Shown: positions 9,142 to 30,072 of the stretch, piece by piece | Numbering within the stretch: the stretch's first letter is position 1 | Layout of the letters: every line of letters begins with the position of its first letter | From: an uncultured Chloroflexia bacterium | GTDB lineage: Bacteria; Chloroflexota; Limnocylindria; Limnocylindrales; CSP1-4 | DNA length: 64,000 nucleotides | Assembly: GCA_963736895.1 (NCBI GenBank) | Contig: CAVTQU010000008.1 | Span: 119,920 to 183,919, forward strand | Direction: 5' to 3' | Translations under genes and position numbers: made by a program | The notes under the pieces: model-generated | Told to the model about the DNA's origin: nothing | Database searches by the model: none | Seen by the model: the letters and a program-made list of their open reading frames with translations, nothing else

Positions 9142-10428
9142 TCATTTCGGCAACGGGCGCCAGTTGGCGGTGCCCGAAATCGAGATTGGCAGCGTCGCGG
9201 CCGACTCCGGATTTTCCAGCGGAATGACCACGAGGTGGTCGCAGCTATTGGCCGATCCGCCGTACAGCTCCGCACCGTCTGACGACCAATCGACCCAGCA
9301 GCTTGCAATTGATCCGAGGTCTCTGACCGCACCGTCGTAAGGCGGAAGCGAAGGGTCGAAGTCAGCCACGATCACGTCCCCGTCGGCCGAGAGAAAAGCA
9401 ATCTGCAATCCATCTGGCGATAGCGAGACGCCCCAGTCGGGCACGCCTCCGACACCGTCGGACCAAATCGAGTTGCCATGCCCTGTCCCAGCGTCAAGGA
9501 CAACCTGGCTCGGCGTGCCAAAACCCGGCTGCATGGCATATCCGATTTCCTGGTCGAAGTCAGGGTCCGGGAAGAAACGGGGTTGCGAGAAGTGAGCATC
9601 GGGCGCTATCAGGCCGGCGCGCTCCACATCGTTCGTCCCATCCGGGGTTATCGGATAAATCGTGTGCAGGTCTGTGTGGATTCCATCCTTATCGGTGGAG
9701 CGGTACACGATCGTCTGGCTGTCGGGAGACCATTCGGGCAGGTCCGCCTTGGACGGACCGCTGGTGATGGGCTCGATTGCTCCGCCGTCGGCGTCATCGT
9801 CAGCTATGAAGATCCTGGAGACACCCTGATCCTCGGCCGCGAAGGCGATCCTGGAGCTGTCGCCAGACCACGAGAAGTTGGGGACATCTGTCGCCATCAC
9901 TGCCTTGCCCTGGCTGGCCTGCACCCGTTGTGACGTCCCGTCGACCGACTCGATCATCAGCCGCCCTACACCGGCGCCCGGACCATCCAAGGCCAGGTAC
10001 GCAACGCGCGTCCCGTCCGGCGAGAACACAGGTGTCGTGGCATACGACCCGGTTGTGCTCACCTGTTTGGGGTCCGATCCGTCCGGCTGCGCGACGTAGA
10101 TCACGCCGCCGTCCGCAAAAGCGATCACGTCGTCAGATGGCGCGAGGACCAGCGGGGGATGCCAGATGCGTCCTCCAAAGGCAACGGCCAAAACCACCAG
10201 AGCGAGGAGCGTCAGGACCAGCAGCAAAGCCAGAGCGGCCTGTCGCGGAATCCGCACATCAACATCAGCAGCGGGTCCTGGCAACCACCGCTGAGGGAAG
10301 CGCCATGCAGCCTTCTGCTCGACCTTATGAACAGCCGCCAGCGCGCGGTTGCGTCCGTGCTCCGATCCCCGCTCCGGACCGTCGCCGAGCCATTGCGCGA
10401 TAACCGGGTCAAGTTGCATGTCGTTCAT
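9142..10428 (-). CDS. Membrane anti-sigma factor with periplasmic TolB-like (PD40/WD40-like) beta-propeller domain
   Basis: Short cytoplasmic N-terminus, one TM helix (ALALLLVLTLLALVVLAVAF), then repeated SPDG/WSPD blades (VFSPDGTRVAY, WSGDSSRIAF, EWSPDSQTIVY, SLSPDGLQIAF). Its ATG overlaps the stop of the upstream ECF sigma (ATGA). Confidence 0.7.
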   Translation of the reverse strand: MNDMQLDPVIAQWLGDGPERGSEHGRNRALAAVHKVEQKAAWRFPQRWLPGPAADVDVRIPRQAALALLLVLTLLALVVLAVAFGGRIWHPPLVLAPSDDVIAFADGGVIYVAQPDGSDPKQVSTTGSYATTPVFSPDGTRVAYLALDGPGAGVGRLMIESVDGTSQRVQASQGKAVMATDVPNFSWSGDSSRIAFAAEDQGVSRIFIADDDADGGAIEPITSGPSKADLPEWSPDSQTIVYRSTDKDGIHTDLHTIYPITPDGTNDVERAGLIAPDAHFSQPRFFPDPDFDQEIGYAMQPGFGTPSQVVLDAGTGHGNSIWSDGVGGVPDWGVSLSPDGLQIAFLSADGDVIVADFDPSLPPYDGAVRDLGSIASCWVDWSSDGAELYGGSANSCDHLVVIPLENPESAATLPISISGTANWRPLPK

Positions 10429-16974: not shown

Positions 16975-17109
16975 GCCTCGACGCCACACCAAATCGGCGC
17001 ATCGGTGCCCGCAGTCAACGGCGATGGGGCCTACACCCTCGACATGTCGCCCTACCGTCAGTGAGAATCAATCCCCCAGACGTACTAGGTCGACGCAGGA
17101 ACGGAGTAA

Positions 17110-17406
17110 GTGCCACAAGCGGTTGCCCTCGCCGTCCTGGCCCTCGCTCACTTTTTTGACTACGCCTCGTTCCTGGTAATGATCGACCGTCATGGTCTGT
17201 CGGCCGAGGCCAACCCCATCGTTGTTCAGCTGGCCAACGTATCGGGCCTGCCCGGCTTGACCCTGGCCAAGGTTGCGACCGTTGGCCTCGCCGCCCTGCT
17301 CATGGTGCTGATCGCGCCACGGCGGAAGAAGCTGGCGATGGGGCTGCTGATGTTCGGCGTCGCAGCGGGATTGCTCGGAGGCATCTCGAACATCGCGTCC
17401 ATCTGA
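17110..17406 (+). CDS. Small hydrophobic membrane protein (98 aa). Uncertain; overlaps the 3' end of the GT87-like gene on the opposite strand
   Basis: Two or three predicted TM segments. It could be an antisense artefact of a membrane-protein gene. Confidence 0.25.
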   Translation: MPQAVALAVLALAHFFDYASFLVMIDRHGLSAEANPIVVQLANVSGLPGLTLAKVATVGLAALLMVLIAPRRKKLAMGLLMFGVAAGLLGGISNIASI

Positions 17407-18654
17407 CCCTCGTCCTCGTCCGCGGTGCGTCTGCGGACCTTGTCCCGTGACGGGATCACGAGCCAGATGAACATCCCGAGCAGCAGCAGGTTGCGCACGT
17501 TCAGGATGTCCACCGCAAGCGGCTGGATCCGGCGCAGGTCGTCGAAGAGCAGCGGGTAGACGGTCGTCGTCAGGAGACAGATCGCGAGCAGCAACGCCGT
17601 CTTACGCCACGGCAGCAGCGCCCCAAACGGCAGCAGCCAGGCGACGTACTGCGGCGACAGGACCTTGTTCGCCAGCATGACCAGCAGCAGCGTCGCCAGC
17701 AGGAAGTTGATCAGGGTCATCGGCAGAACCGTGCCGTAGCGTCGCCAATCGCGGTCGAAGCTGAAGGCGAGGCAGACTGCAAGCAGCGTTCCGAGGCCGA
17801 GCATCAGGACCGCATTCGGGCCTATCAACGTGGCGTATGACCGGCGACTCAACCTCGAACGAGCCGAAGCCGAACGTCACGAGCGCTCGCGTGTGGAACA
17901 GGTTGTGCGAAAGCATCGCCAATCCTGCAACGACACTCTCGATCTCGAAGCCACGGTCTTCCTGGTAGGACAGGAATGTGAAGGCATCCCGTCCGGCGAT
18001 GAAGATCAGCAGCGCACCAAGCGCAACCATCAGTGCGGCAAAGCCGAAAACGACCATCGCCGAGCTTCGCCAGCGCCGGCCGAACGCGTAGTACGCAAAC
18101 AGCACGGGCACCAGGAATGCCGGGTACAGCTTCGTCGCGGCCCCCAGTGCCAGCGCGAAACCCGCCCAGCCCGGGCGACCCGACGCAACGGCGATGAGAG
18201 CCAGGGCGGTGAACAGGGCGGCGAAGATGTCGAAGCGCCACAACACCTGTGGTGCGGCGGCGAAGAAGAGAGCCGCGAAGGCGATGATCGATCCGTTGCG
18301 CGACAGAGCCGACCACCCGTGGCCAGCCAGCCAAGCCACGGCCGCACCAGTCGCCAGGGTGGTGCCGATGGCAAAAATGGTGAATGGAATGGTGAAAGCG
18401 CTCTCGGATGACCCGCTGACCAGGCGTGGGAAGACCAGTGGGACGAGGGCAAACGGCGGGTATTCGAGGACAAAGTCGCGGTACGGGACCAGCCCTGACG
18501 CAACCTTGTCGGCCATCTCGAAGAAGACCGACGGGCCTCCGTCGCGGGGCCGGGCAAGGGTCACGAACACTGCCATGGCCATGCCGACGACCAGCGCGGC
18601 GACGGGGAACAGACGGCCACGGACCGAGTCCGCTGTGACCGGCGCTGCGCTCAT
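17226..18654 (-). pseudogene. DUF2029/GT87-like integral-membrane glycosyltransferase (mannosyltransferase-like), apparent frameshift at about 17833
   Basis: N-terminal part (VPYRDFVLEYPPFALVPL, many TM helices) is in frame 17602..18720. C-terminal TM part (LIGPNAVLMLGLGTLLAV...) is in frame 17226..17852. Removing one C from AGGCCCG at about 17833 rejoins them. The likely start, Met-23 at 18654, overlaps the upstream stop (ATGA). The true stop may lie before 17226. Confidence 0.6.
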
Positions 18655-19034
18655 GCCGTCATGAGCAGGTAGACCCCCACGATGCCGGCCACGAACGTGA
18701 CCGCCAGCACAGCAGCCCACACGAAACGTGCGAGCCCGCGCGGCTTATCGATCGGCAGCCAGGCCCATGCGGAGCGCCAGGCACGGAGACACGCGTCGGC
18801 CGATAGCGGGATCAGCAGGCCGATCGCAATGAGAGCGGGAAAGCGGACGATGGCCGACGTGGGCGTCGCCCCGAAGTTCAGGGCCGTGATCGCGATCACG
18901 CCACACACGAGCACCACGATCGAGAGATAGATGAACCAGTCGCCAAGCACTGCCGGATTCGACTCGGGAACGCGTTGCGGCGGTTCTGGCTTCGAGCCGG
19001 CATGTCTTGGGATTTCCTGACGATCGAGATCCAC
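18651..19034 (-). CDS. Small membrane protein (3 TM helices), unknown function
   Basis: Hydrophobic segments; translationally coupled to the downstream GT87-like gene. Confidence 0.4.
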   Translation of the reverse strand: MDLDRQEIPRHAGSKPEPPQRVPESNPAVLGDWFIYLSIVVLVCGVIAITALNFGATPTSAIVRFPALIAIGLLIPLSADACLRAWRSAWAWLPIDKPRGLARFVWAAVLAVTFVAGIVGVYLLMTA

Positions 19035-19101: not shown

Positions 19102-19587
19102 CTACTGGTTGGTTGGGTCTTCCTCGATCTGTCGGCGAGCCTCGGCGCGATGGTCGGCCACGGCCGTGGCGACCGCTTCGTCCGAAAGGCCCAGCATCTG
19201 CGCGGCGAGGATGGCGGCGTTCTCCGCCTGTCCGATCCCAACCGTGGCGACCGGAATGCCCTTGGGCATCTGCACGATGGAGAGCAGCGCGTCGAGGCCG
19301 CCGGCGACCTGGCCGGGCATCGGCAGTCCGATCACCGGCAGCGTGGTCTTGGAGGCCACGACACCCGGCAAATGCGCCGCGAGGCCGGCGGCGCAGATGA
19401 ATACCTGTGCTCCCCGGTTGAGTGCGTCCGCGACGTACGACTCGAGCAGGTCCGGCGCGCGATGGGCCGAGATGACGCGCAGCTCGTTCGCCACGCCCAG
19501 CTTGGTCAGGGTGTCGGCCGCTTTCTGCACAACCTCCAGGTCGGACCGGCTGCCGACGATGATCGCGACGAACCTGTTGTCTGGCAT
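19102..19587 (-). CDS. purE: N5-carboxyaminoimidazole ribonucleotide mutase
   Basis: [11 protein letters not shown]...[10 protein letters not shown]...[10 protein letters not shown]; a classic PurE of about 160 aa. ATG at 19587 (MPDNRFV); the ORF-track start at 19593 is a GTG. Confidence 0.9.
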
Positions 19588-19589
19588 CG

Positions 19590-20288
19590 TCACGATTGCC
19601 AGTACGGGCCGGTGAGGCCGAGAGACGCGAAGTGAGCACGCAATTGGTCAATGCCCGGACGCTCGTAGTCGATCGAGAGCTTCCGTTCGTACAGCGGCGT
19701 GCCCAACACGTGTACCTCGTCGGGCGTGAGCGAGGCCGCCGAATCAGGCGGAGCGTTCGCGGTCAGATCGGATGCGTCTCGATGTTCGGGTGAGGCAAAA
19801 AAGACCATCGTGTTGGAGCAGGTCGTGATGATGTCCTCCCACCATTGCGTCGGCTTGAGCGCAAGGTAGACGATCGTCTGCTCCGGCTCGATCTAGCGTG
19901 GCGCGGCCGTCGTTCATCTCGATGTGAATTGGCTGGCGCGCAGTGATGGCAGAACGAGTCGATCGCGATGGGCACGTCGAGCATCGAATGGAACGCAACG
20001 GCGTCCCAGGCACAGTTGGCGAAGTAGTCGCGTCCGTTGGCAGTGACTCGAAACGGCGTGGCGATCGCAGAGAACGGGAACGCCATCAGGATCCGCGCCG
20101 TGCCTTCGACGAGGGCGATGTGGCGCGCATCGGCGAGCTCTCGGAGCACGCCCGTCGTCTCAGCACGGCTCAGTCCGAACTCGACCATCAGTTCCTCAAC
20201 GACGGACGGGCTGCCCGTTTCGACGAGCTGCTCGAAGATGTGGAGGCGGACGCGCTGGCTGAGTGTCGGCTCGTTCACGGCCGGAGCG
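19590..20288 (-). pseudogene. MerB-like (organomercurial lyase family) protein, apparently frameshifted
   Basis: Core ...GRDYFANCAWDAVAFHSMLDVPIAIDSFCHHC resembles MerB (Cys/Asp catalytic dyad region: CAxD). The C-terminal continuation is split across frames (19744..20013, then 19590..19808 starting VFFASPEHRD, like MerB HFFAS). One break sits at an A6/T6 run at about 19797. Likely start is GTG at about 20288. Family assignment rests on memory of MerB. Confidence 0.45.
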
Positions 20289-20306
20289 TAGCGGTATGGT
20301 CGGGTA

Positions 20307-21032
20307 GTGAGCGACGAACGCGGACCGATTGCGCTGGTTTCGGCACTCCCCCAGGAGCTCGAGCTGCTCCGCGACGCCACTATCGAAGAGGAGGTGCTCG
20401 AGCCGGCGCCGGGCGTGCACATCTGGCAGGGAATCGCTCGATGGTCATCGGGTCGTTCTCGCCGAGGCGGGGATCGGCAAGGTCGCCGCCGCGATGCTGA
20501 CGACGGCACTCGTCCTCGCCACGAGGCCGCGCGTGCTCGTCTTCACTGGAGTCGCCGGCGGACTGGATCCCAACCTGGACGTCGGCGATGTGGTGCTCGG
20601 ATCGCGGCTCATCCAGCACGACGCGGGCGTAGCACGGGTCGGCGGATTGGAGCGCTACCAGGCCGGCCACCTGCCGTTTTTCGATCCCACGGAACGGTTC
20701 GGCTTCGAGCCGCCGGCCGAATCTGCTGCGCGCCGCGGAGAGGCCGACTGGAAGGCATCGAGCTGCAATCGATCGGTGAGGTCCCGCCGCGCATCGTCGT
20801 GGGCACGATCCTGACGGGTGACGTCTTCGTCGACTCGAAGCCGTTGCGTCACCAGCTGGCGGCCGAGTTGGGCGGGCAGGCAGTCGAGATGGAGGGTGGC
20901 GCGGTCGCCCAGGTCGCCGAACGTCTTGGCGTGCCGTTCCTGGTGGTGCGCGCCCTGTCGGATCTGGCCGGCGAGAACGCCCATTCGCCCGAGGTCTTCG
21001 AGCGCTTCCTCGATCATCGCCTCGGACAATAG
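20307..21032 (+). pseudogene. mtnN: 5'-methylthioadenosine/S-adenosylhomocysteine nucleosidase (Pfs/MtnN family), two apparent frameshifts
   Basis: N-terminus in frame 1 ([14 protein letters not shown]). Core in frame 2 of ORF 20329..20814 ([23 protein letters not shown]...[12 protein letters not shown]). C-terminus back in frame 1 ([14 protein letters not shown]...[12 protein letters not shown]). Shifts near 20445 and 20755. Confidence 0.7.
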
Positions 21033-21068
21033 CGCACGCGTCGTTCGCCACCTGTTGCCTATCCTCTA

Positions 21069-22075
21069 GCCCTGAACACCGAACGAACCCGGCTGATCAT
21101 CGATGTCGATACGGGCATCGATGATTCGCTCGCCCTGCTCTACGCCTGCGCCTCCCCCGAGGCCGAGATCCTGGCAGTGACGTGCTGCTCCGGCAACGTC
21201 GTCGCTCAGCAGGTCGCGGTGAACACCCGTGCGGTGCTCGAGCTGGCCGGTCGACCGGACATCGAGGTTGCGCTGGGGCGCGAAGTGCCCCTCGTCAGGC
21301 CGCTGATGACCGCACCGGAGACGCACGGACCACGGGGCATCGGCTATGCCGAACTGCCCGAACCGTCGCAGGGTTTGAGCGAGCGCCACGCCGCGGACCT
21401 GATGATCGCTGAGGCCCGCGGCCGGCCGGGCGAGGTGACGCTGATCACGGTCGGGCCACTGACCAACCTCGCAGTCGCGCTCGTGCGCGAGCCGGAACTG
21501 CCGCGACTGCTCAAGGGACTGGTGATGATGGCCGGGGCCTATCGATCACCAGGCAACACGGCACCAACCAGCGAGTGGAACGTTGCTGTGGACCCAGAGG
21601 CGATGGCGATCGTGCTCGCCGGCTGGGAGGCTCACCCCGACGTACCGCGGCCGGTTGCGCTTGGGCCTGGACGTGACCGAGCGCGCGAAGATGACGCCCG
21701 ATCATCTCGCCGAGCTCCACCACCGCGCCGGCGACCGCGAAGAATCGGCGGTCCTGCGGTTCATCGACGACGCGCTGCGCTTCTACATGGAGTTCCACAG
21801 CCGCTACGACGGTTTTTATGGCGCTTTCATTCACGACGCCCTGGCCGTGGCCTCGGCGCTCGATCCGACCTTGCTCAGGACCGAATTGCTGGCCGTTCAG
21901 GTGGAGCTGGGCGGCATGTTTACGAGCGGCGAGACCGTCACCGACTGGCGCCGCGTTTGGGGTCGCGAGCCAAATCTGGACGTCGCGGTCGCAGGCGGAC
22001 GTGGACGCATTCTTCGAGCGTTTCATCGATCGTGTCGGAAAGCTCGCCGCGCAGCGTTCGGACGTGTCAATCTGA
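21069..22075 (+). pseudogene. Inosine-uridine-preferring nucleoside hydrolase (IUNH family), two apparent frameshifts and an unresolved start
   Basis: RLIIDVDTGIDDSLALLYA (the DxDxxxDD Ca-binding motif) lies in frame from 21069 with no canonical start after the in-frame stop at 21030. The middle part is in ORF 21583..22092 (FIHDALAVASALDP) and the C-terminus in ORF 21818..22075 (DVDAFFERFIDRV). Confidence 0.7.
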
Positions 22076-22105
22076 CACCTCCGGGGAGGTAGAAGAGGAG
22101 AGAGC

Positions 22106-23005
22106 ATGGGCTGGATCTCGGGACAGTTCACGACGCGGGTCATCGTGCTTATGCCGGTGGCGATCGCGATCAACATCGTCCTCGGCTACACCATCCAGAC
22201 GGTGCTCAAGGTGCCGATCTACATGGATTCGATCGGCACGATCTTCGTTGGCGTCCTCGCCGGACCGCTCGCCGGTGCCCTGACGGGCATCCTGACCAAC
22301 CTGATCTGGCAGTACGCGCCGGTCATCGGCGGCGGAACGATCGGCCCGTTCGCCATTACCGCCGGCGTGATTGGCTTGCTGGCAGGGCTCTGGGGTTACC
22401 TGGGCGTGTATCGACCTCGCCCCGCCACGGGCACGCAGCTGTTCGTGGGTGCGCTAGTCGCCGCGGCCATCGTGGTCCTGGTCGCAATCCCTATCTTCAA
22501 CAACCCCGCCTACACGGATCCGAACATCGGCAACTATCCAGACTGGGTGTTTACCGCCGCCATCGTGATCGCATTGGTCGCAGCAATCGGCGTAGCAGCC
22601 TTTATCTACATCAAGCGCGACATGGCTGGTCTGTGGGTGGCCATTTCCGGAGTTGTGACCGGCATCGTCGCAGCGTTCGTTTCCGCCCCAATCGCGGCAA
22701 TCGTCTTCGGGGGTGTGACCGGGTCGGGTACCGACCTGCTCGTGGCGGCATTACGTCAAGGCGGCTCGGACGTGTTCGCGGCATCGCTCGGGCAGGGCCT
22801 GTTCAGCGACCCGATCGACAAGCTGATCACCAGCTTCATCGTGTACATCATCCTGTCGAGCCTGTCGGTCCGCGTCCTTGCCCGCTACCCGCTGGGTGAT
22901 CGACTCACTCGTCCCGTGACTTCCGACAAGTCGCCGGAGACGCCGCAGACGCCGACACCCCCGGCTCCGCCGGCACCCGATTCACCCGCGGTATCCGACA
23001 CGTAG
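22106..23005 (+). CDS. ECF-transporter substrate-specific (S) component-like membrane protein, specificity unknown
   Basis: About 6 TM helices, Gly/Ala-rich. Sits immediately upstream of ecfT and two ecfA genes. Pro/Thr-rich C-terminal tail. Confidence 0.55.
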   Translation: MGWISGQFTTRVIVLMPVAIAINIVLGYTIQTVLKVPIYMDSIGTIFVGVLAGPLAGALTGILTNLIWQYAPVIGGGTIGPFAITAGVIGLLAGLWGYLGVYRPRPATGTQLFVGALVAAAIVVLVAIPIFNNPAYTDPNIGNYPDWVFTAAIVIALVAAIGVAAFIYIKRDMAGLWVAISGVVTGIVAAFVSAPIAAIVFGGVTGSGTDLLVAALRQGGSDVFAASLGQGLFSDPIDKLITSFIVYIILSSLSVRVLARYPLGDRLTRPVTSDKSPETPQTPTPPAPPAPDSPAVSDT

Positions 23006-23112
23006 GCACGACCTCAGGGCTGACCCAGCAGCCAGGGCTCCCCGATTTCGTAGCCCAGCCGCAGCACGGGCTCTACCGCAGCCTCAACCCGACCACCAAG
23101 CTGGTCATCGCG

Positions 23113-23820
23113 TTGACCAGCGCGATCATCGCTCTCAGCGTTCGGGGCTGGACCGCGCCGCTGATCGTGTTGGTCGTTTCGTTCGCACTAATCGTCGCGG
23201 TGGGCGTGGTGCGGCAATACATCCCGTACCTGCTCGCGACCTCGTTGTTGCTCATCTCGATCCTGCTCATCAACACGTTCCTCTATCCGGGGGCCACCGA
23301 CACGATCTTCGTGCTGGGTCCCTTTACGGCCACGGGAACGGGCCTGATCGCGGCTTCGCAGGCGGCGCTGCGCGTGCTCGCCTTTGCCACGTCCGTCGCC
23401 CTGTTCGCGTTGACAACTCGAACTGACGAGTTGGTCGACGACCTCGAACGACGCGGACTCGGACGTCGAGGTGCCTTCATCCTCACGACCGCTATCGGGA
23501 CCGTGCCTCAGATGACCCAACGTGCCCGTGAGATCGTGGATTCGCAGCGTTCGAGAGGCCTCGATACGCAGGGCGGCATCCTCGCGAGGATCAGAGGTCT
23601 CTTGCCGTTGGCCGGGCCGCTCGTCCTCAGTGCCTTCACGGAAGTGGAGCACCGAACCATGGCCCTGGAGGCACGCGCGTTCGCGGCACCGGGGCGGCGC
23701 ACAGTGCTGCGCGCCTACCGGGACACCGCACTGCAACGGACTCTGCGATGGGTGCTCGTGCTCGGAACGATCGCGCTGGTTGTGGCGGAGGTGGGTGGCC
23801 TTCTTGGGTGGATCCCGTGA
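23113..23820 (+). CDS. ecfT: Energy-coupling-factor transporter transmembrane component EcfT (CbiQ family)
   Basis: 235 aa, polytopic, conserved Arg-rich coupling-helix region (ERRGLGRRGAF...). Its stop overlaps the GTG start of the next gene (GTGA). Confidence 0.75.
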   Translation: MTSAIIALSVRGWTAPLIVLVVSFALIVAVGVVRQYIPYLLATSLLLISILLINTFLYPGATDTIFVLGPFTATGTGLIAASQAALRVLAFATSVALFALTTRTDELVDDLERRGLGRRGAFILTTAIGTVPQMTQRAREIVDSQRSRGLDTQGGILARIRGLLPLAGPLVLSAFTEVEHRTMALEARAFAAPGRRTVLRAYRDTALQRTLRWVLVLGTIALVVAEVGGLLGWIP

Positions 23821-24626
23821 GCTTGAACCTCGACAAGGTCGACTATCGCTACGCCGGTGCTACCGAAGCGACGCTGCACGGAATTGATTTAACGCTCGAG
23901 CCGGGGCGGGTCATCGGAGTGGTAGGCGCGAATGGCGCCGGCAAATCGACGATGTGCCTGTGCGCGGTTGGGCTTGCCCCCAACGTGATCGGCGGGGAGC
24001 TCAAGGGCAAGGTGGCGATAGATGACCTCGACACCTCCGGCAGCCCGATGCACAAGCTTGCCCAGCGCGCGGGCATCCTCTTCCAGGAATCGCAGACCCA
24101 GATAACCAGCGGCACGCCGACCGTTTGGGAAGAGGTCGCGTTCGGGCCGCGCAACCTGTCGCTGAGCCTGGACGAGGTCGTGGAGCGCACGTGGTCCGCG
24201 ATCCACGCCATGAGGCTGGAGGGCATCGTCGATCGGGATCCAAGCCGTCTTTCGGGCGGGCAGGCGCAGCTCGTCGCCCTGGCGGCGGTCCTGGCGCTCG
24301 GCCCGCGGTATCTCGTCCTTGACGAACCGACATCTCAGCTGGACCCGCTGGGCACCCGCCTGGTCGGCGAAACGCTGGCGCATACGGCACGCGAGACGAA
24401 CGTCGGCATCCTGATTGCCGAACACAAGACCGATCTCCTCGCCGAGCTCTGCGACGAGATTGTCGTCATCGACAAGGGACAGCTCGTGGCGCGCGGGACA
24501 GTTGAAGACGTTCTGCGTCACCCCAGCCTGGGTAAATGGGGCGTCGCCGCACCTGCCGACGTTCGATTGGAGCGCGCCGTCAGCGACGCGGGTCTGGCTT
24601 GGCAGGGCGAATGGGCGCAGGAGTGA
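23817..24626 (+). CDS. ecfA: ECF transporter ATPase subunit (ABC ATPase) EcfA
   Basis: Walker A GANGAGKST, ABC signature LSGGQ, Walker B LVLDEPTS. Likely start is GTG at 23817. Confidence 0.85.
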   Translation: MSLNLDKVDYRYAGATEATLHGIDLTLEPGRVIGVVGANGAGKSTMCLCAVGLAPNVIGGELKGKVAIDDLDTSGSPMHKLAQRAGILFQESQTQITSGTPTVWEEVAFGPRNLSLSLDEVVERTWSAIHAMRLEGIVDRDPSRLSGGQAQLVALAAVLALGPRYLVLDEPTSQLDPLGTRLVGETLAHTARETNVGILIAEHKTDLLAELCDEIVVIDKGQLVARGTVEDVLRHPSLGKWGVAAPADVRLERAVSDAGLAWQGEWAQE

Positions 24627-25459
24627 CTGCGGCATCGGGCATCGCGCTGGCGACGCGAGGCATCGGCTTCGTCTACCCGGACGGCACGCGGGCGCTTTCC
24701 AACGTGAGCTTGGACATCCAGGCGGGATCGCGCGTCGCAATCGTTGGCCAGAACGGTTCGGGCAAGTCGACTCTGATCAGACACTTCAACGGCCTGCTGC
24801 GCGCCACGGAGGGTGAGGTGCAGATTGCCGGCGAGCAGGTCGGAGATCGTCACGTCGCCGAGCTGGCCCGGCTGGTGGGAATCTCCTTCCAGAACCCGGA
24901 TCGGCAGATCTTCTCGTCGAGGGTCAAGTCGGAGGTCGCATTTGGACCGCGCAACATCGGGTTGCGTGGCGACGAGCTCCAACGTCGGCTATCGGGTTCC
25001 CTGACCCAGGTCGGGCTTGCAGATCAGGCCGATACAAACCCCTACGACCTCGGCTTCTCCGAGCGCAAGCTCCTGGCCTTGGCCTCGGTCGTCGCCATGG
25101 ATACGCCGGCAATCGTGCTGGATGAGCCGACGACGGGTCAGGACGCGAACGGCGTCCAGAAAGTCATGGAGATCGTCGCGGACCTGGCGAAGGACGGCCG
25201 AACCGTGGTCGCTGTCAGTCACGACATGACCTTTGTCGCAGAGGCGTTCGAACGCGTCCTCGTCCTGCGCGAGGGCCGATTGGTGCTAGATGGCGCGGTG
25301 GACGACGTGTTTGCCGAAGCGAATTGGCCAGTCCTCGAGTCGACCTTCCTGGAGCCGCCGTTCCCGGCAAGGCTCGGCGCGCGACTCGGCTTCGGGTCGA
25401 CGCCGACCAACGCAGCGTTCGTCGAAGCTCTCGTTGCGCGATCCAGGGACGTGCAATAG
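24611..25459 (+). CDS. ecfA: ECF transporter ATPase subunit EcfA' (second ABC ATPase)
   Basis: Walker A GQNGSGKST, Walker B IVLDEPTTG; the signature position reads FSERKLL (a degenerate LSGGQ). ATG at 24611 overlaps the previous gene by 16 nt. Confidence 0.85.
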   Translation: MGAGVTAASGIALATRGIGFVYPDGTRALSNVSLDIQAGSRVAIVGQNGSGKSTLIRHFNGLLRATEGEVQIAGEQVGDRHVAELARLVGISFQNPDRQIFSSRVKSEVAFGPRNIGLRGDELQRRLSGSLTQVGLADQADTNPYDLGFSERKLLALASVVAMDTPAIVLDEPTTGQDANGVQKVMEIVADLAKDGRTVVAVSHDMTFVAEAFERVLVLREGRLVLDGAVDDVFAEANWPVLESTFLEPPFPARLGARLGFGSTPTNAAFVEALVARSRDVQ

Positions 25460-25663
25460 CCTGCGCATCTAGTGATCGACCCGAATCGGATCTGCAGCTG
25501 CATCTGTAGCTAGGCGGGAGGAACCTCTCGCCGTAGCGAGCGCTACGCGCCGCGTCCGACCCACGGGGGTCCTCCTTCCGCCGAATCACCGGCTCTCCAG
25601 CCGATTTCCGTGCGCCCGATTTGACCGGACGCCTTTCTCCAATTCGACCGAGGTTGACCTTCG

Positions 25664-26215
25664 ATGGCCGACGCTATTCCCGCCTCTTCCGCCCGACTCA
25701 GACCAAGAACCGCCGACCCATATCGCGACCTTGGCGTCATCGACAGCCGAGCGCCACGCTTCAACCAGGTCGTGGTCGGCACTGTCTCACTGCTGGCCGT
25801 CATCACCGGTTGGTGGCCGCTGCTCACGCTCCTCGCGCTTCAGTTGGGTATCGGCCTGCGCTTCGGCCGCCAGTTCTGTCTTCCGTGCGTGGCCTATTTC
25901 GAGCTGATCCAGCCGCGCTTCGGCCAGGGCGATCTCGAGGACAGCCGTCCACCAAGGTTCGCCAACAAGGTTGGCTTCGTCTTCCTGGGCGCAGCCACTG
26001 TTGCCTACGTGCTCGGGTTCGGGCTGGTCGGCGCCGCATTGGGGCTCATCGTTGCGTCGCTCGCGCTGCTCGCCGCGGTCACCGGTTTCTGCACCGGTTG
26101 CTGGATGTACAAGACCGCGGCCCCGTTCCTGGGTATCCACGTCCGGCACATCGATGCGTCTGCGATCTGCACCGAGTGCGCGATCGACGCTCGCGACCCT
26201 GAGGCCGGCTGCTGA
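25664..26215 (+). CDS. DUF4395-like small membrane protein with Cys pairs
   Basis: RFNQVVVG start region, 4 TM helices, CxxC-like pairs (CLPC, CTGC, CTEC). Family call from memory only. Confidence 0.4.
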   Translation: MADAIPASSARLRPRTADPYRDLGVIDSRAPRFNQVVVGTVSLLAVITGWWPLLTLLALQLGIGLRFGRQFCLPCVAYFELIQPRFGQGDLEDSRPPRFANKVGFVFLGAATVAYVLGFGLVGAALGLIVASLALLAAVTGFCTGCWMYKTAAPFLGIHVRHIDASAICTECAIDARDPEAGC

Positions 26216-26250: not shown

Positions 26251-26766
26251 ATGCGCATCGCGGTCGTCGTAAGCCTCTGGCTGTTCGTCGCCTGTGGCGG
26301 ACCAACTCCCGCGCCGAGCGTCGGTCCCGTTGTCTCGACCTTCGAAGACGCCACAATGTCCTTCGAATACCCCAGCAACTGGAACGCCCTGGTTCCCGAA
26401 TCCGGGGATCCGGCCCTGGTCGTCCTTTCGACCGAACCACTGGCCACGACTGAGCCCCGCATCGCGAAGCTACAGAGGGACGGCGTTTACCTGGCTTGGA
26501 CGACGCTGACCACGGCGCCTGCAACAACCCCCGATCCCAGCTTCAGCTCCGAAGTGACCGTTGGCGGCCGGCCGGCAACGGCGTCTCAGCAGCTTGCGCA
26601 GGGCGATTGCGCAGCGCTCGACGGAACCGAGCTGCTGACGGTAGTCGTCGAGTCACCCGGCTCAGCGCAGGACGTCCAAATGCAGGCGTGTGTCCAGGGA
26701 CCAAACGTGGAGCTCACGGGCGCCACAATCGCCGGCATGCTGGCCAGCGTCCACTGGAAGAACTAG
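26251..26766 (+). CDS. Lipoprotein, unknown function
   Basis: Signal peptide plus lipobox LFVACGG; 171 aa. Confidence 0.5.
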   Translation: MRIAVVVSLWLFVACGGPTPAPSVGPVVSTFEDATMSFEYPSNWNALVPESGDPALVVLSTEPLATTEPRIAKLQRDGVYLAWTTLTTAPATTPDPSFSSEVTVGGRPATASQQLAQGDCAALDGTELLTVVVESPGSAQDVQMQACVQGPNVELTGATIAGMLASVHWKN

Positions 26767-27317
26767 GTCGCAGCCTCGTCAATTCCGACTTCGGTGACGG
26801 CCAGCTGGACCTCTGTGACCTGGCCGTCGCGGATGGACCACGCCCGAACAGTGGGCATCTCTTCCATGAGCGAGCAGACGAGGTAGAGGCTCTCCGGGAA
26901 GAAGGCGAGCCCAATGTCCGTCACCGACGGTACAGCGGGTGAGGCCACGTGCGAATGGACGATCCCCCATGGCACTTCCCCGGCGTCTTCGAGCTCCAGC
27001 CAGACCTTGAGCTGTTCCTGTGGGTCGATCACGTAGCGATACGGCGACTCTGCCGCGTTCCGAAGTGGGACGTAGCGCGTTGGAGCGCCGCCATCGCCCG
27101 CGTAGGTGGGGCCGACGAGCAGCCCGCATGCCTCGTTGGGCAGGCCCTGGCGTGCGGCATCGATGATCGATTGCACCAGCTCAGCCGAGACTGACGCGTT
27201 CGTCGCCTCGAGGCTCGGCGCAGCGTCTGACGCGGCGTCGCGGGCGGCCGTGCCGGTCTGAGCAGCCTCCGCCCACTCATCGGACGTGGGAAGGCCTTTC
27301 GACTCTTCCTTCACCAC
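26763..27317 (-). CDS. mec: JAMM/MPN+ metalloprotease of the Mec+ type (CysO carboxy-terminal peptidase)
   Basis: JAMM motif EACGLL...HSHVASPAVPSVTD (ExnHxHx7Sx2D). GTG start overlaps the cysM stop (GTGA). Sits downstream of cysO and cysM, as in the Mycobacterium tuberculosis CysO pathway. Confidence 0.75.
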   Translation of the reverse strand: MVKEESKGLPTSDEWAEAAQTGTAARDAASDAAPSLEATNASVSAELVQSIIDAARQGLPNEACGLLVGPTYAGDGGAPTRYVPLRNAAESPYRYVIDPQEQLKVWLELEDAGEVPWGIVHSHVASPAVPSVTDIGLAFFPESLYLVCSLMEEMPTVRAWSIRDGQVTEVQLAVTEVGIDEAAT

Positions 27318-28198
27318 AGGTTGAGCGCCTCCAGCTCGTCGTCGGATGGATCTCTCCGCCAGAGATCCTCGGATAGGTATTTCCACCCACCGTCCGCCAA
27401 AAGGGCAACAAGAGTTCCACTCTCCATCGTTTCAGCTATGCGCGAAGCGATGGCCATCACGCCACCCGACGACACGCCGGCAAAGATTCCTTCGGTCGCG
27501 GTCAGGCGTCGCATCGCCTCGATCGACTCCTCGGTCGATACGAGGAAACGGCCATCGAGTGCGGACTCATCAAGAATCTCGGGCACGAACCCCTCCTCCA
27601 GCGAGCGCAGGCCTTGTACCTGTTCTCCGGGAATGGGCTCGGCCGCGTAGACGCGCACATTGGGGTTGTGCTCGCGCAGGCGGCGGCCAACGCCCATGAG
27701 CGTGCCGCCCGTCCCCAGACCAGCCACGAACACGTCTACCTGACCGGCGTCAGCGAGGATCTCCACACCCGTCGCTTCGTAGTGGGCGCGCGGATTGTCT
27801 TGGTTGGCGTACTGGTCGGGCATAACGTAGCGCGGATCGTCGGCCGCCATGCTTCGCGCCAACGCAACCGCGCCGTTGGAACCCAACGCCCCGGGTGAGT
27901 CGATGATGGAAGCGCCGTACATCTCCAGCAGCTGGCGCCGTTCGCGGGTGACGTTGTCGGGCATCACGACGGTCAGCCGATATCCGCGGACCTGGCAGAT
28001 CATTGCCAGCGAGATGCCCGTGTTGCCTGACGATGGCTCCAGGATCACCGAGTCCTCGCGCAGGCGCCCGTCTCGCTCGAGCCCTTGGACCAGCGAACGA
28101 GCCACGCGGTCCTTGACCGAGCCGGTCGGGTTGAAGCCCTCCAGTTTGACCAGCATCGCCACGCGCGGATTTGGATTGAAGCGCGCGACTTCCACCAT
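27311..28198 (-). CDS. cysM: Cysteine synthase (CysM-type, PLP-dependent; likely accepts thiocarboxylated CysO)
   Basis: KLEGFNPTGSVKDR PLP-lysine motif, about 295 aa. Operon context with cysO and mec. Confidence 0.9.
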   Translation of the reverse strand: MVEVARFNPNPRVAMLVKLEGFNPTGSVKDRVARSLVQGLERDGRLREDSVILEPSSGNTGISLAMICQVRGYRLTVVMPDNVTRERRQLLEMYGASIIDSPGALGSNGAVALARSMAADDPRYVMPDQYANQDNPRAHYEATGVEILADAGQVDVFVAGLGTGGTLMGVGRRLREHNPNVRVYAAEPIPGEQVQGLRSLEEGFVPEILDESALDGRFLVSTEESIEAMRRLTATEGIFAGVSSGGVMAIASRIAETMESGTLVALLADGGWKYLSEDLWRRDPSDDELEALNLW

Positions 28199-28251
28199 GG
28201 GCGTGTGCCCGATGGCGTCAATCAGGGACGGGTACTCGCCCCGAACCTGCG

Positions 28252-28518
28252 TCAGTGACCGCCCGCCATGGCTGGCAGGATGATCACCGCGTCGTTGTCC
28301 TTGACCGGCGTGCCGAGTTCGTCCATGTAGCGCACGTCCTGGCCGTTGAGGTACACGTTGACGAAACGGTGCAACGAGCCGTCTCCGGCGAACAGCTGCT
28401 CCCCCAGACCGGGATAGCTCGCCACGAGATCGGTCAGCAGCTCGCCGACGTTCGCGCCGCTCGCATTGACTTCCTTCTGGCCGTCAACCTGGGTGCGGAG
28501 GACCGGTGGGATCCGGAC
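28252..28518 (-). CDS. cysO: MoaD/ThiS-family sulfur-carrier protein (CysO-like); C-terminus GG-His
   Basis: About 88 aa from GTG at 28518 (VRIPPVLRTQVDG...). Ends ...ILPAMAGGH*. A beta-grasp sulfur carrier with one residue after the Gly-Gly, which would need removal (JAMM protease) before adenylation. Confidence 0.7.
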   Translation of the reverse strand, partial: VRIPPVLRTQVDGQKEVNASGANVGELLTDLVASYPGLGEQLFAGDGSLHRFVNVYLNGQDVRYMDELGTPVKDNDAVIILPAMAGGH

Positions 28519-28523
28519 GCTGC

Positions 28524-29660
28524 TCAACCCGCGACCGCCAGCGTTGCGGCCGGCTCCGACGACGACGCAATCGGCATCGTGCCGTCGCCACAGGCCGGGC
28601 AGTGCGGGTCGCGACGGAGGGCCACCTCGCTGAACGTGCCGTCCAGGGCGTCCCAAATCAGGAGTCGCCCAATTAGCGGATCACCGAGCTTGAGCAGCAC
28701 CTTGATCGCCTCGGTCGCCTGGAGCAGGCCCATGACGCCCGGTACGACGCCCAGGACGCCAGCAACGGAACAGCCAGGCGCGAGCTCGGGTGGCGGCGGC
28801 GTGGGATACAGGCAGCGGTAGCACGGCCCCTGGTAGGGCACGAACACCGACAGCTGGCCTTCAAACCTGAACACCGACGCGTGGATGACTGGGATGGCCG
28901 CGCGAACGGCAGCGTCGTTGAGCGTGTACCGCGTCTCGAACGTGTCGGTGCCGTCGATCACGACGTCGTAGCCCGCGATCAGTCGATCGACGTTCTCCTC
29001 GGTCAGCATCTCCTCGTGGGCGACAACCTTGACCTCGGGGTTGAGCGCCCTGATCGAGATGGCGGCCGACTGGGTCTTCTTCATGCCGATCCGGTCTTCG
29101 GTATGGACGACCTGGCGCTGCAGGTTGGAAAGGTCGACGACATCGAAGTCGACGATGCCCAGCGTGCCGACTCCCGCCGCTGCGAGGTAGAGCAGGCCTG
29201 GTGAGCCGAGCCCCCCAGCGCCGATGAACAGCACTTTCGACTGCTGGAGCTTGGCCTGTCCTTCGGGCCCGACCTCGGGCATGACGAGGTGGCGCGCGTA
29301 GCGCGGGTTGCGTGCGACAGCCGGCGTGTCGTCAGGCAGCTCGACCGGCCGACCCTGGGCCTTCCAGACACCGATCCCGCCGGCCATGGAGGCGACGTTC
29401 TGGTAGCCGAGGCTCGCCATCTGCAGCGCGGCGCGCATCGAACGGGCGCCGGCGGCGCAATAGACGACGACCTGCTTCGACTTGTCGGGTGCGACCTGCT
29501 CGATGCGGTCCAGCACCTGGATCGGTGGTATCAGCGTCGCTCCGGCAAGGTGGCCGGCCTTCCACTCGTGTTCCTCACGCGTGTCGACGAGGACCGCGCC
29601 CTGCGCAATGAGATCAGCCGCCTCTGCCGGGGTTACCTCGCGAACGGGACCGCGCGCCAT
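28524..29660 (-). CDS. Rhodanese domain fused N-terminally to a MoeB/ThiF-type E1 adenylyltransferase (MoeZ-like sulfur-carrier activating enzyme)
   Basis: Rhodanese active-site loop VVVYCAAGARS (aa ~60-130), then ThiF nucleotide-binding VLFIGAGGLGSPGLLYLAAAGVG and zinc Cys pairs CYRC...CPAC. Start probably MARGPVREV at 29660, just after the sufU stop. Confidence 0.85.
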   Translation of the reverse strand: MARGPVREVTPAEAADLIAQGAVLVDTREEHEWKAGHLAGATLIPPIQVLDRIEQVAPDKSKQVVVYCAAGARSMRAALQMASLGYQNVASMAGGIGVWKAQGRPVELPDDTPAVARNPRYARHLVMPEVGPEGQAKLQQSKVLFIGAGGLGSPGLLYLAAAGVGTLGIVDFDVVDLSNLQRQVVHTEDRIGMKKTQSAAISIRALNPEVKVVAHEEMLTEENVDRLIAGYDVVIDGTDTFETRYTLNDAAVRAAIPVIHASVFRFEGQLSVFVPYQGPCYRCLYPTPPPPELAPGCSVAGVLGVVPGVMGLLQATEAIKVLLKLGDPLIGRLLIWDALDGTFSEVALRRDPHCPACGDGTMPIASSSEPAATLAVAG

Positions 29661-29673
29661 GGGCAGCTCTTGA

Positions 29674-30072
<399 letters not shown>

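Follow-up and report, generated by a model that had tools for sequence, protein, structure and literature searches.

In Clostridioides difficile the queuosine hydrolase QueK (CD1682), a member of the inosine-uridine nucleoside hydrolase (IUNH) family, is encoded beside qrtT under a preQ1-I riboswitch (PMC11477304). QrtTUVW, a different system, has been predicted to be a dedicated energy-coupling factor (ECF) transporter of queuosine precursors (Rodionov et al. 2009, cited in both PMC6593275 and PMC5372724). Here we describe a locus of the same logic in an uncultured Chloroflexia bacterium (assembly GCA_963736895.1, contig CAVTQU010000008.1), in which an IUNH gene directly precedes the four genes of a complete ECF transporter, S-T-A-A', within a 64-kb stretch of DNA (65% G+C) that we refer to as the window. 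We consider it fairly probable that these genes encode a dedicated (group I) ECF importer for a ribonucleoside or a ribosylated micronutrient together with its cytoplasmic cleavage by the IUNH, with queuosine or a related 7-deazapurine nucleoside as the leading candidate substrate. What is new relative to QueK/QrtT and the predicted QrtTUVW is the phylum, the presence of energising genes dedicated to this transporter, the larger size of the S component and the lack of a riboswitch. Limnocylindria, the group to which this bacterium belongs, are widespread soil and freshwater Chloroflexota, and to our knowledge there is no cultured Limnocylindria model for an IUNH-ECF system.

The likeness to the C. 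difficile QueK-QrtT(-QueL) genes (CD1682-CD1684) and to CD3073 lies in an IUNH-family hydrolase beside an S component of the PF12822 type and in the CD3073 family being the only strong family match of S. The window S component, however, has T, A and A' genes of its own, whereas C. difficile uses a shared ECF core; a preQ1 riboswitch was not found in the window, nor QueL among the genes called in two relatives' loci, and the phylum (Chloroflexota) is a different one. QrtTUVW, which is compared here through citations only, shares the dedicated four-gene S-T-A-A' layout and a QrtT-like S component. Relevant to what follows is that "QrtT_CD1683", "QueT_CD2097" and "QrtT_CD3073" all stand in the header of Dataset S1 in PMC11130926, and hence, by the label in this one header, the queuosine field treats CD3073 as QrtT, a queuosine-precursor S component; the label comes from the supplement header only, nothing on CD3073 or its locus-tag variants being found in the main texts of the literature searched. 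Taxids of Limnocylindria are absent from the datasets of the same study.

Profile searches (Pfam, NCBIfam) and tblastn recover all six genes of the array that had been proposed at 20307-25459, head to tail and co-directional on the + strand (Table 1): an MtnN-like 5'-methylthioadenosine/S-adenosylhomocysteine (MTA/SAH) nucleosidase, the IUNH, S, EcfT, EcfA and EcfA'. The proposal of a complete ECF transporter following the IUNH is likewise borne out by the PF02361 match of EcfT, the two PF00005 ATPases and the GTGA start/stop overlaps, read directly from the sequence and its translations, at the EcfT/EcfA and EcfA/EcfA' junctions. Elsewhere the genes are closely spaced, with 2 nt between the MtnN stop and a CTG at 21072, 30 nt between the IUNH stop and the S start, holding a GGAGG ribosome-binding site at ∼22083-22090, and 14 nt between the S stop and a CTG at 23020. 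Because the gaps amount to 2 to ∼30 nt and the remaining genes overlap, co-transcription appears likely. None of the ECF genes (S, EcfT, EcfA, EcfA') contains a frameshift.

Table 1. Features of the hydrolase-ECF locus and its surroundings, in window positions.
Feature	Position	Strand	Basis or remark
MtnN-like nucleosidase	20307..21069	+	Pfam PNP_UDP_1 matches on fragments in two frames
IUNH nucleoside N-ribohydrolase, His type	∼21072..22075	+	PF01156
ECF S component, QrtT(CD3073)-like, 299 aa	22106..23005	+	NCBIfam NF045596, below cut-off
EcfT, CbiQ family, transmembrane coupling component	∼23020..23820	+	PF02361
EcfA ATPase	23817..24626	+	PF00005
EcfA' ATPase	24611 or 24623..25459	+	PF00005; TIGR04521
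GT87 gene	17226-18720	-	One extra base at 17799
PurE	19102-19593		Intact, inside the affected stretch
MerB-like gene	19590-20278	-	Extra bases at 19893 and 19930
DUF4395 membrane-protein gene	25664-26215	+	Just past EcfA'
Sulfur-carrier cysteine biosynthesis cluster	26763-29708	-	JAB/MPN peptidase, CysM-like PALP enzyme, ThiS/CysO-like carrier, MoeZ-like ThiF-rhodanese

The original prediction had called the third protein S-component-like and had left its substrate between a nucleoside and some other micronutrient. Searched with profile hidden Markov models (HMMs), it matches no vitamin-specific S family. Its sole strong NCBIfam match is the "CD3073 family putative ECF transporter S component" (NF045596, E 4e-29), where it scores 101.4 bits over two stretches against a cut-off of 180; the only other match, a weak one, is to the FolT family (E 9e-6). 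There is also a weak N-terminal sequence match to FolT. The score against PF12822 is 25.9 bits, with a gathering cut-off of 30.7, and a precomputed PF12822 match is present in many close relatives. By these scores the protein is homologous to the CD3073 family, as distinct from a demonstrated member of it.

An exhaustive search yielded 1149 relatives of S among cluster representatives, many of them only ∼200 aa long and aligning in two blocks; those of this length from Anaerolineae score 69-120 bits against NF045596, likewise below the cut-off. Alignment with the ∼200-aa proteins reveals an insertion of ∼65 residues (∼106-172) in the Limnocylindria S components. In an AlphaFold2 model (mean predicted local distance difference test, pLDDT, 89.6) the window protein has eight long predicted helices, two of them supplied by the insertion, and the loop that joins these two, NNPAYTDPNIGNYPDW, has a conservation of 0.91, above that of the inserted helices themselves. 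Compared with the CD3073 profile of 174 positions the protein is longer by ∼100 aa and has the two extra helices and a proline-rich C-terminal tail that is unconserved. When the model was compared with the Protein Data Bank (PDB) by Foldseek, ThiT (TM-score to target 0.62-0.68) and FolT came out top by probability and TM-score, with non-significant E-values; the predicted core fold may be shared with ThiT, FolT and RibU, with eight helices predicted here as opposed to six.

Some relatives of S occur in fused form. An S-like domain is joined N-terminally to DUF4118 and PAS in proteins P0267, P0169, P0201 and P0265, three of which are full sensor kinases (HisKA and HATPase, two also with REC); in P0265 only DUF4118 and PAS follow the S-like domain. 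Fusions of S with EcfT, 460-490 aa in length, are found in P0200, P0210, P0233, P0236 and P0251, and in locus L075, too, S and T read as one fused open reading frame (ORF). Within the window S gene itself there is a weak match to the Twister-P5 ribozyme (22647-22696, - strand; 26.2 bits, gathering score 37.6, E 0.014) that most likely arises by chance.

The identity proposed for the hydrolase, an IUNH with a DxDxxxDD calcium site, holds: the first fragment alone reaches 159.1 bits against PF01156, above the gathering score, and the motif reads IIDVDTGIDD (21096-21125). The best solved structures for the frame-corrected protein are the IU-NH enzymes of Leishmania and Crithidia (E ∼1e-49, end-to-end alignment), against which the metal site is retained together with an FIHD motif that aligns to the catalytic His-Asp. 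Full-length homology, DxDxxxDD and His-Asp are shared with the group I nucleoside hydrolases in general (Crithidia/Leishmania IU-NH, E. coli RihA, RihB and RihC, and UriH), and the corrected protein aligns over its full length with the RihA and UriH profiles. Its scores, however, are about half the equivalog cut-offs and reach none of them (RihA 201.8/433, RihB 135.3/459, RihC 177.5/382, UriH 199.6/450), and on this profile evidence it belongs to a subfamily separate from RihA/B/C and UriH. The QueK subgroup of IPR023186 is separable by a sequence-similarity network (PMC12632869).

The strongest evidence for a link between hydrolase and transporter comes from a comparison of 82 related loci, in which each gene was placed by tblastn and ORFs were clustered with the criterion that G+C at first codon positions exceed that at second positions (GC1 > GC2). 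The S homologues behind these loci are from metagenome-assembled genomes (MAGs) of Limnocylindria (Chloroflexota) throughout, and 77 loci have enough upstream sequence to be assessed. In 65 of the 77 the gene immediately upstream of S, on the same strand, is the IUNH gene, an adjacency far beyond chance; in 2 the IUNH gene is farther upstream, and in 3 assessable loci it was not seen by tblastn. Seven more carry S-T-A-A' in an unrelated context, with the IUNH gene convergent just past EcfA' and with a DeoD-type phosphorylase, a GntR/FCD regulator, an inositol-monophosphatase-family gene and a NUDIX gene upstream; the IUNH proteins of these seven are more divergent, 40-43% identical to the reference IUNHs of loci L001 and L002. 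The conserved core is IUNH-S-T-A-A'. Between PurK and IUNH the gene content varies (NpmA-like methyltransferase, GNAT, P-type ATPase) while the IUNH-S junction persists, and for this reason we favor functional coupling over mere synteny.

In the mechanism that we propose the S subunit would capture a ribonucleoside or other ribosylated micronutrient, S-T-A-A' would import it, and the co-transcribed IUNH N-ribohydrolase would split it in the cytoplasm to base and ribose. A nucleoside as substrate is suggested by the conserved hydrolase partner and by enzymes of nucleoside and ribose metabolism beside related operons. In addition to the DeoD-type phosphorylase there is a ribokinase-like PfkB gene (9241-10279) directly 3' of S-T-A-A' in one Anaerolineae lineage (loci L087, L088, L090 and L091); the ∼200-aa S relatives of Anaerolineae are likewise encoded in an S-T-A-A' operon. 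The phosphorylase and the ribokinase-like neighbors fit ribosides in general; it is the QrtT-like S component and the precedent of QueK that make queuosine the leading candidate. If nucleosides are indeed imported, the range of ECF substrates in an environmental phylum would no longer be limited to vitamins and precursors of queuosine, a candidate route for scavenging queuosine or queuine outside host-associated bacteria would be at hand, and an eight-helix variant of the S component would be available for structural work.

Several observations weigh against this reading. As a rule, ECF systems transport bases or vitamins and not bulk nucleosides. The S component reaches the curated cut-off of neither PF12822 nor the CD3073 family and carries the extra two-helix insertion. 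The IUNH gene has no ATG, GTG or TTG before its metal-site motif, only the CTG at 21072, and no ribosome-binding site, and frameshifts cluster at 17.8-22.0 kb, in and around the hydrolase genes, while the 3.4 kb of ECF genes have none. At Rfam gathering score no riboswitch of the preQ1, S-adenosylmethionine (SAM) or purine class, for which the original prediction had proposed to look upstream, is found in the window or 8 related loci, and none that is relevant in the long leader of L087; within 19500-23200 none of these classes is matched even at E ≤ 1. Among the called genes of loci L001 and L002 there is no QueL, tRNA-guanine transglycosylase (TGT), radical-SAM or other queuosine gene. Finally, the wider region is syntenic, with PurE/PurK upstream and the JAB-CysM-ThiS-MoeZ cluster downstream, no adjacent IUNH gene is found at the S-T-A-A' operons of Anaerolineae relatives, and inherited gene order could explain some of the adjacency.

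Taken to its end, the last point would mean that the adjacency is nothing but inherited order, the transporter importing an unrelated base or vitamin and the IUNH serving general nucleoside turnover. The extensive synteny around the operon, the Anaerolineae S relatives that lack an IUNH and the weak similarity of S to the FolT family would all fit. Inherited order does not readily account, however, for an IUNH gene that keeps its place next to the operon when the stretch from PurK to IUNH varies in gene content, nor for its reappearance beside the operon in the wholly different context of the seven loci described above, and no vitamin-specific S family is matched; we regard this explanation as decidedly unlikely.

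A narrower interpretation than import of some ribosylated compound is that the locus performs true queuosine salvage, with a dedicated importer of the QrtTUVW type and a QueK orthologue that releases queuine for tRNA modification. ECF systems are typically importers of micronutrients, as queuosine salvage would have it, and qrtT is reportedly linked to an IunH-like gene in the 2009 work of Rodionov and co-workers. The family nearest to the window S component, CD3073, is labelled QrtT in Dataset S1 of PMC11130926, the supplement of which also counts 357 surveyed cases of PF12822 S components clustered with QueK; the IUNH-family QueK adjoins qrtT in C. difficile (PMC11477304), and PMC6593275 names QrtTUVW as a transporter of queuosine. 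Yet the CD3073 score falls well short of the equivalog cut-off (101 vs 180 bits), the preQ1 riboswitch is missing from the window and the 8 related loci examined with Rfam, QueL and TGT are missing from the called genes of two relatives' loci, and the DeoD phosphorylase and ribokinase-like neighbors in related loci point to riboside catabolism more generally. Queuosine salvage in this strict sense is possible, if somewhat unlikely. The CD3073/QrtT-like S component and the conserved pairing with an IUNH fit the resemblance to queuosine salvage arrangements that had been noted for this locus.

The call of the first gene as an MTA/SAH nucleosidase is sound, since the frame-corrected protein passes two equivalog cut-offs (NF004079, 185.9 > 169; TIGR01704, 129 > 73.8), although as sequenced the gene is split. 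Its place in a hydrolase-transporter module cannot be maintained: MtnN occurs in only 4 of the 82 relatives (L002, L003, L005 and L010). It lies directly upstream of IUNH in the window, L003 and L005, is separated from it by an intervening gene in L002, and in L010 is a frameshifted partial copy ∼360 nt upstream of IUNH. Unlike the MtnN/Pfs enzymes to which it otherwise corresponds, the window gene has four extra bases, and it is not conserved beside the transporter. From this distribution MtnN is a lineage-specific neighbor, outside both the conserved module and the mechanism, and was probably acquired by a subclade. Were the transporter instead to import 5'-methylthioadenosine or 5'-deoxyadenosine, in a role like that of MtaT, with MtnN processing what is taken up, one could point to the MtnN genes directly upstream in three loci, to the partial copy in L010 and to an MtnA (methylthioribose-1-phosphate isomerase) gene convergent to the related operon of another Anaerolineae lineage (L089, 9231-10274, - strand). 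With MtnN absent from 78 of the 82 relatives and IUNH near-universal, we consider such a role highly improbable.

Both hydrolase genes had been said to carry frameshifts, and these are real in the sequence. Frameshift-aware alignment against intact orthologues places four single extra bases in MtnN, near 20434, 20722, 20741 and 21015, and two in IUNH, near 21660 and 21994; others fall in the GT87 and MerB-like genes (Table 1). A plot of G+C at third codon positions (GC3) and a 7-state codon-position HMM could not tell gene junctions from frameshifts, and the survey by alignment covers 14-31 kb. All nine events are single-base insertions, none in a homopolymer of ≥4, and all four affected genes read through without a stop once the nine bases are removed. 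After correction, IUNH shows the divergence expected from the ECF genes (z +0.16 to +1.2 for the 15 closest relatives, mean +0.47 over 57). Among relatives, frameshifts of these genes are found in 4 of 24 Nanopore-only Microflora Danica (MFD) MAGs as against 0 of 58 others, and 6 of 7 such events in the MFD relatives are insertions; the MFD assemblies are Nanopore-only, made with Flye and one round of Medaka (PMC12313526). Because all events are insertions outside long homopolymers, read-through is restored, divergence is not in excess and the relatives affected are Nanopore-only, an artefact is favored: the nine frameshifts are probably long-read consensus or assembly errors, and the hydrolases would then be functional in the living organism.

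It is unlikely, in our estimation, that this genome has truly lost MtnN, IUNH, GT87 and the MerB-like gene to recent pseudogenization while retaining the transporter. Such decay would account for the confinement of the nine frameshifts to 17.8-22.0 kb, the other compared flanking genes and the ECF genes being clean, and for an IUNH gene without canonical start or ribosome-binding site; that PurE remains intact within the affected stretch has also been counted in its favor. Natural decay, on the other hand, would not be expected to leave nine +1 insertions and no deletions, nonsense codons or larger indels, amino-acid divergence is not raised, and the same insertion bias appears only in Nanopore-only relatives. 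The pseudogene reading had been tied to a loss of catalytic residues, and these survive frame correction in both hydrolases. Also against decay is the recurrence of GAATC at three sites, 20434, 20722 and L021:5371, each time in the place of a GATC that restores the frame.

GATC-type motifs lie near 4 of the 9 frameshift sites of the window as compared with a background of 12% (p = 0.017), a weak enrichment, and GAATC is not over-represented in the window overall; a methylation motif as the cause of the frameshifts was accordingly set aside, and the motif is kept as supporting detail only. By inspection, each of the sites in the window could also be read as two substitution alleles placed side by side (for example GAT/GAC as GATCATC), which would fit a consensus of mixed strains. 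The practical lesson is that apparent gene decay in a long-read MAG can come from a cluster of single-base insertions.

EcfT is well identified (PF02361, 71.5 bits vs a cut-off of 25) and conserved in relatives. Its tblastn alignment begins at 23029, with no ATG, GTG or TTG ahead of the conserved N-terminus, and its start is probably, as judged from the reading frame, the CTG at 23020. The situation is a common one: 43 of 81 loci, the window included, have no ATG, GTG or TTG from 90 nt before the S stop to the conserved EcfT N-terminus. An in-frame CTG followed by A is present just upstream of EcfT in 28 of the 40 such loci that were examined, vs 11 of 80 control frames, and in 18 of these 28 it is preceded by GGAG or GAGG at 4-16 nt. 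Since the pattern is present in short-read MAGs too, it is not an artefact of long reads, and it looks as though CTG serves as a regular EcfT start codon in this lineage. The CysM-like cysteine synthase gene of the downstream cluster (- strand) is also without a canonical start (28253-28255); homology continues for 12 codons upstream of its first ATG and reaches a CTG overlapping with the stop of ThiS/CysO (CTGA), and several relatives have a CTG at the same aligned position.

EcfA and EcfA' both match PF00005, and among NCBIfam profiles they score best against models of ECF ATPases, below equivalog cut-offs (EcfA' against TIGR04521, 217.7 bits). EcfA has a canonical Walker A, LSGGQ signature and Walker B, and its GTG start lies in the overlap with the EcfT stop. 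EcfA' begins either at ATG 24611 or at GTG 24623, the latter within the overlap with the EcfA stop, and is a 282-aa form in the database record. Its Walker A and B motifs are intact but its signature is degenerate, LGFSERK (25055-25075, residues 149-155), and in all relatives EcfA' has LG(Y/F)SxRK in place of LSGGQ, which EcfA retains. The combination of the two signatures would give an A/A' dimer with one consensus and one degenerate ATP site.

A more far-reaching proposal, which we put forward as speculative and think rather unlikely, is that the eight-helix, QrtT-like Limnocylindria S components with their NNPAYTDPNIGNYPDW loop, always partnered by an IUNH, form an ECF subfamily of their own whose substrates are intact ribonucleosides and not free bases or vitamins. 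In such a subfamily the binding site would owe its fit to a ribose-bearing substrate to the insertion, EcfT would routinely start with CTG and A/A' would operate with one degenerate ATP site.

With respect to regulation, a scan of 19500-26000 for promoters and terminators was uninformative. Variant aptamers of the c-di-GMP-II-GAG/GCG type score above gathering in L001 (3667-3754), L002 (2741-2823), L003 (629-713) and L005 (2204-2291), in the first two directly upstream of a gene for a small DUF5658 membrane protein; the equivalent leader of the window, 17026-17109, gave no match to this variant. On the other side of the operon, the DUF4395 gene is not conserved just past EcfA' in most relatives, and the sulfur-carrier cysteine biosynthesis cluster is kept downstream of the ECF operon in many of them.

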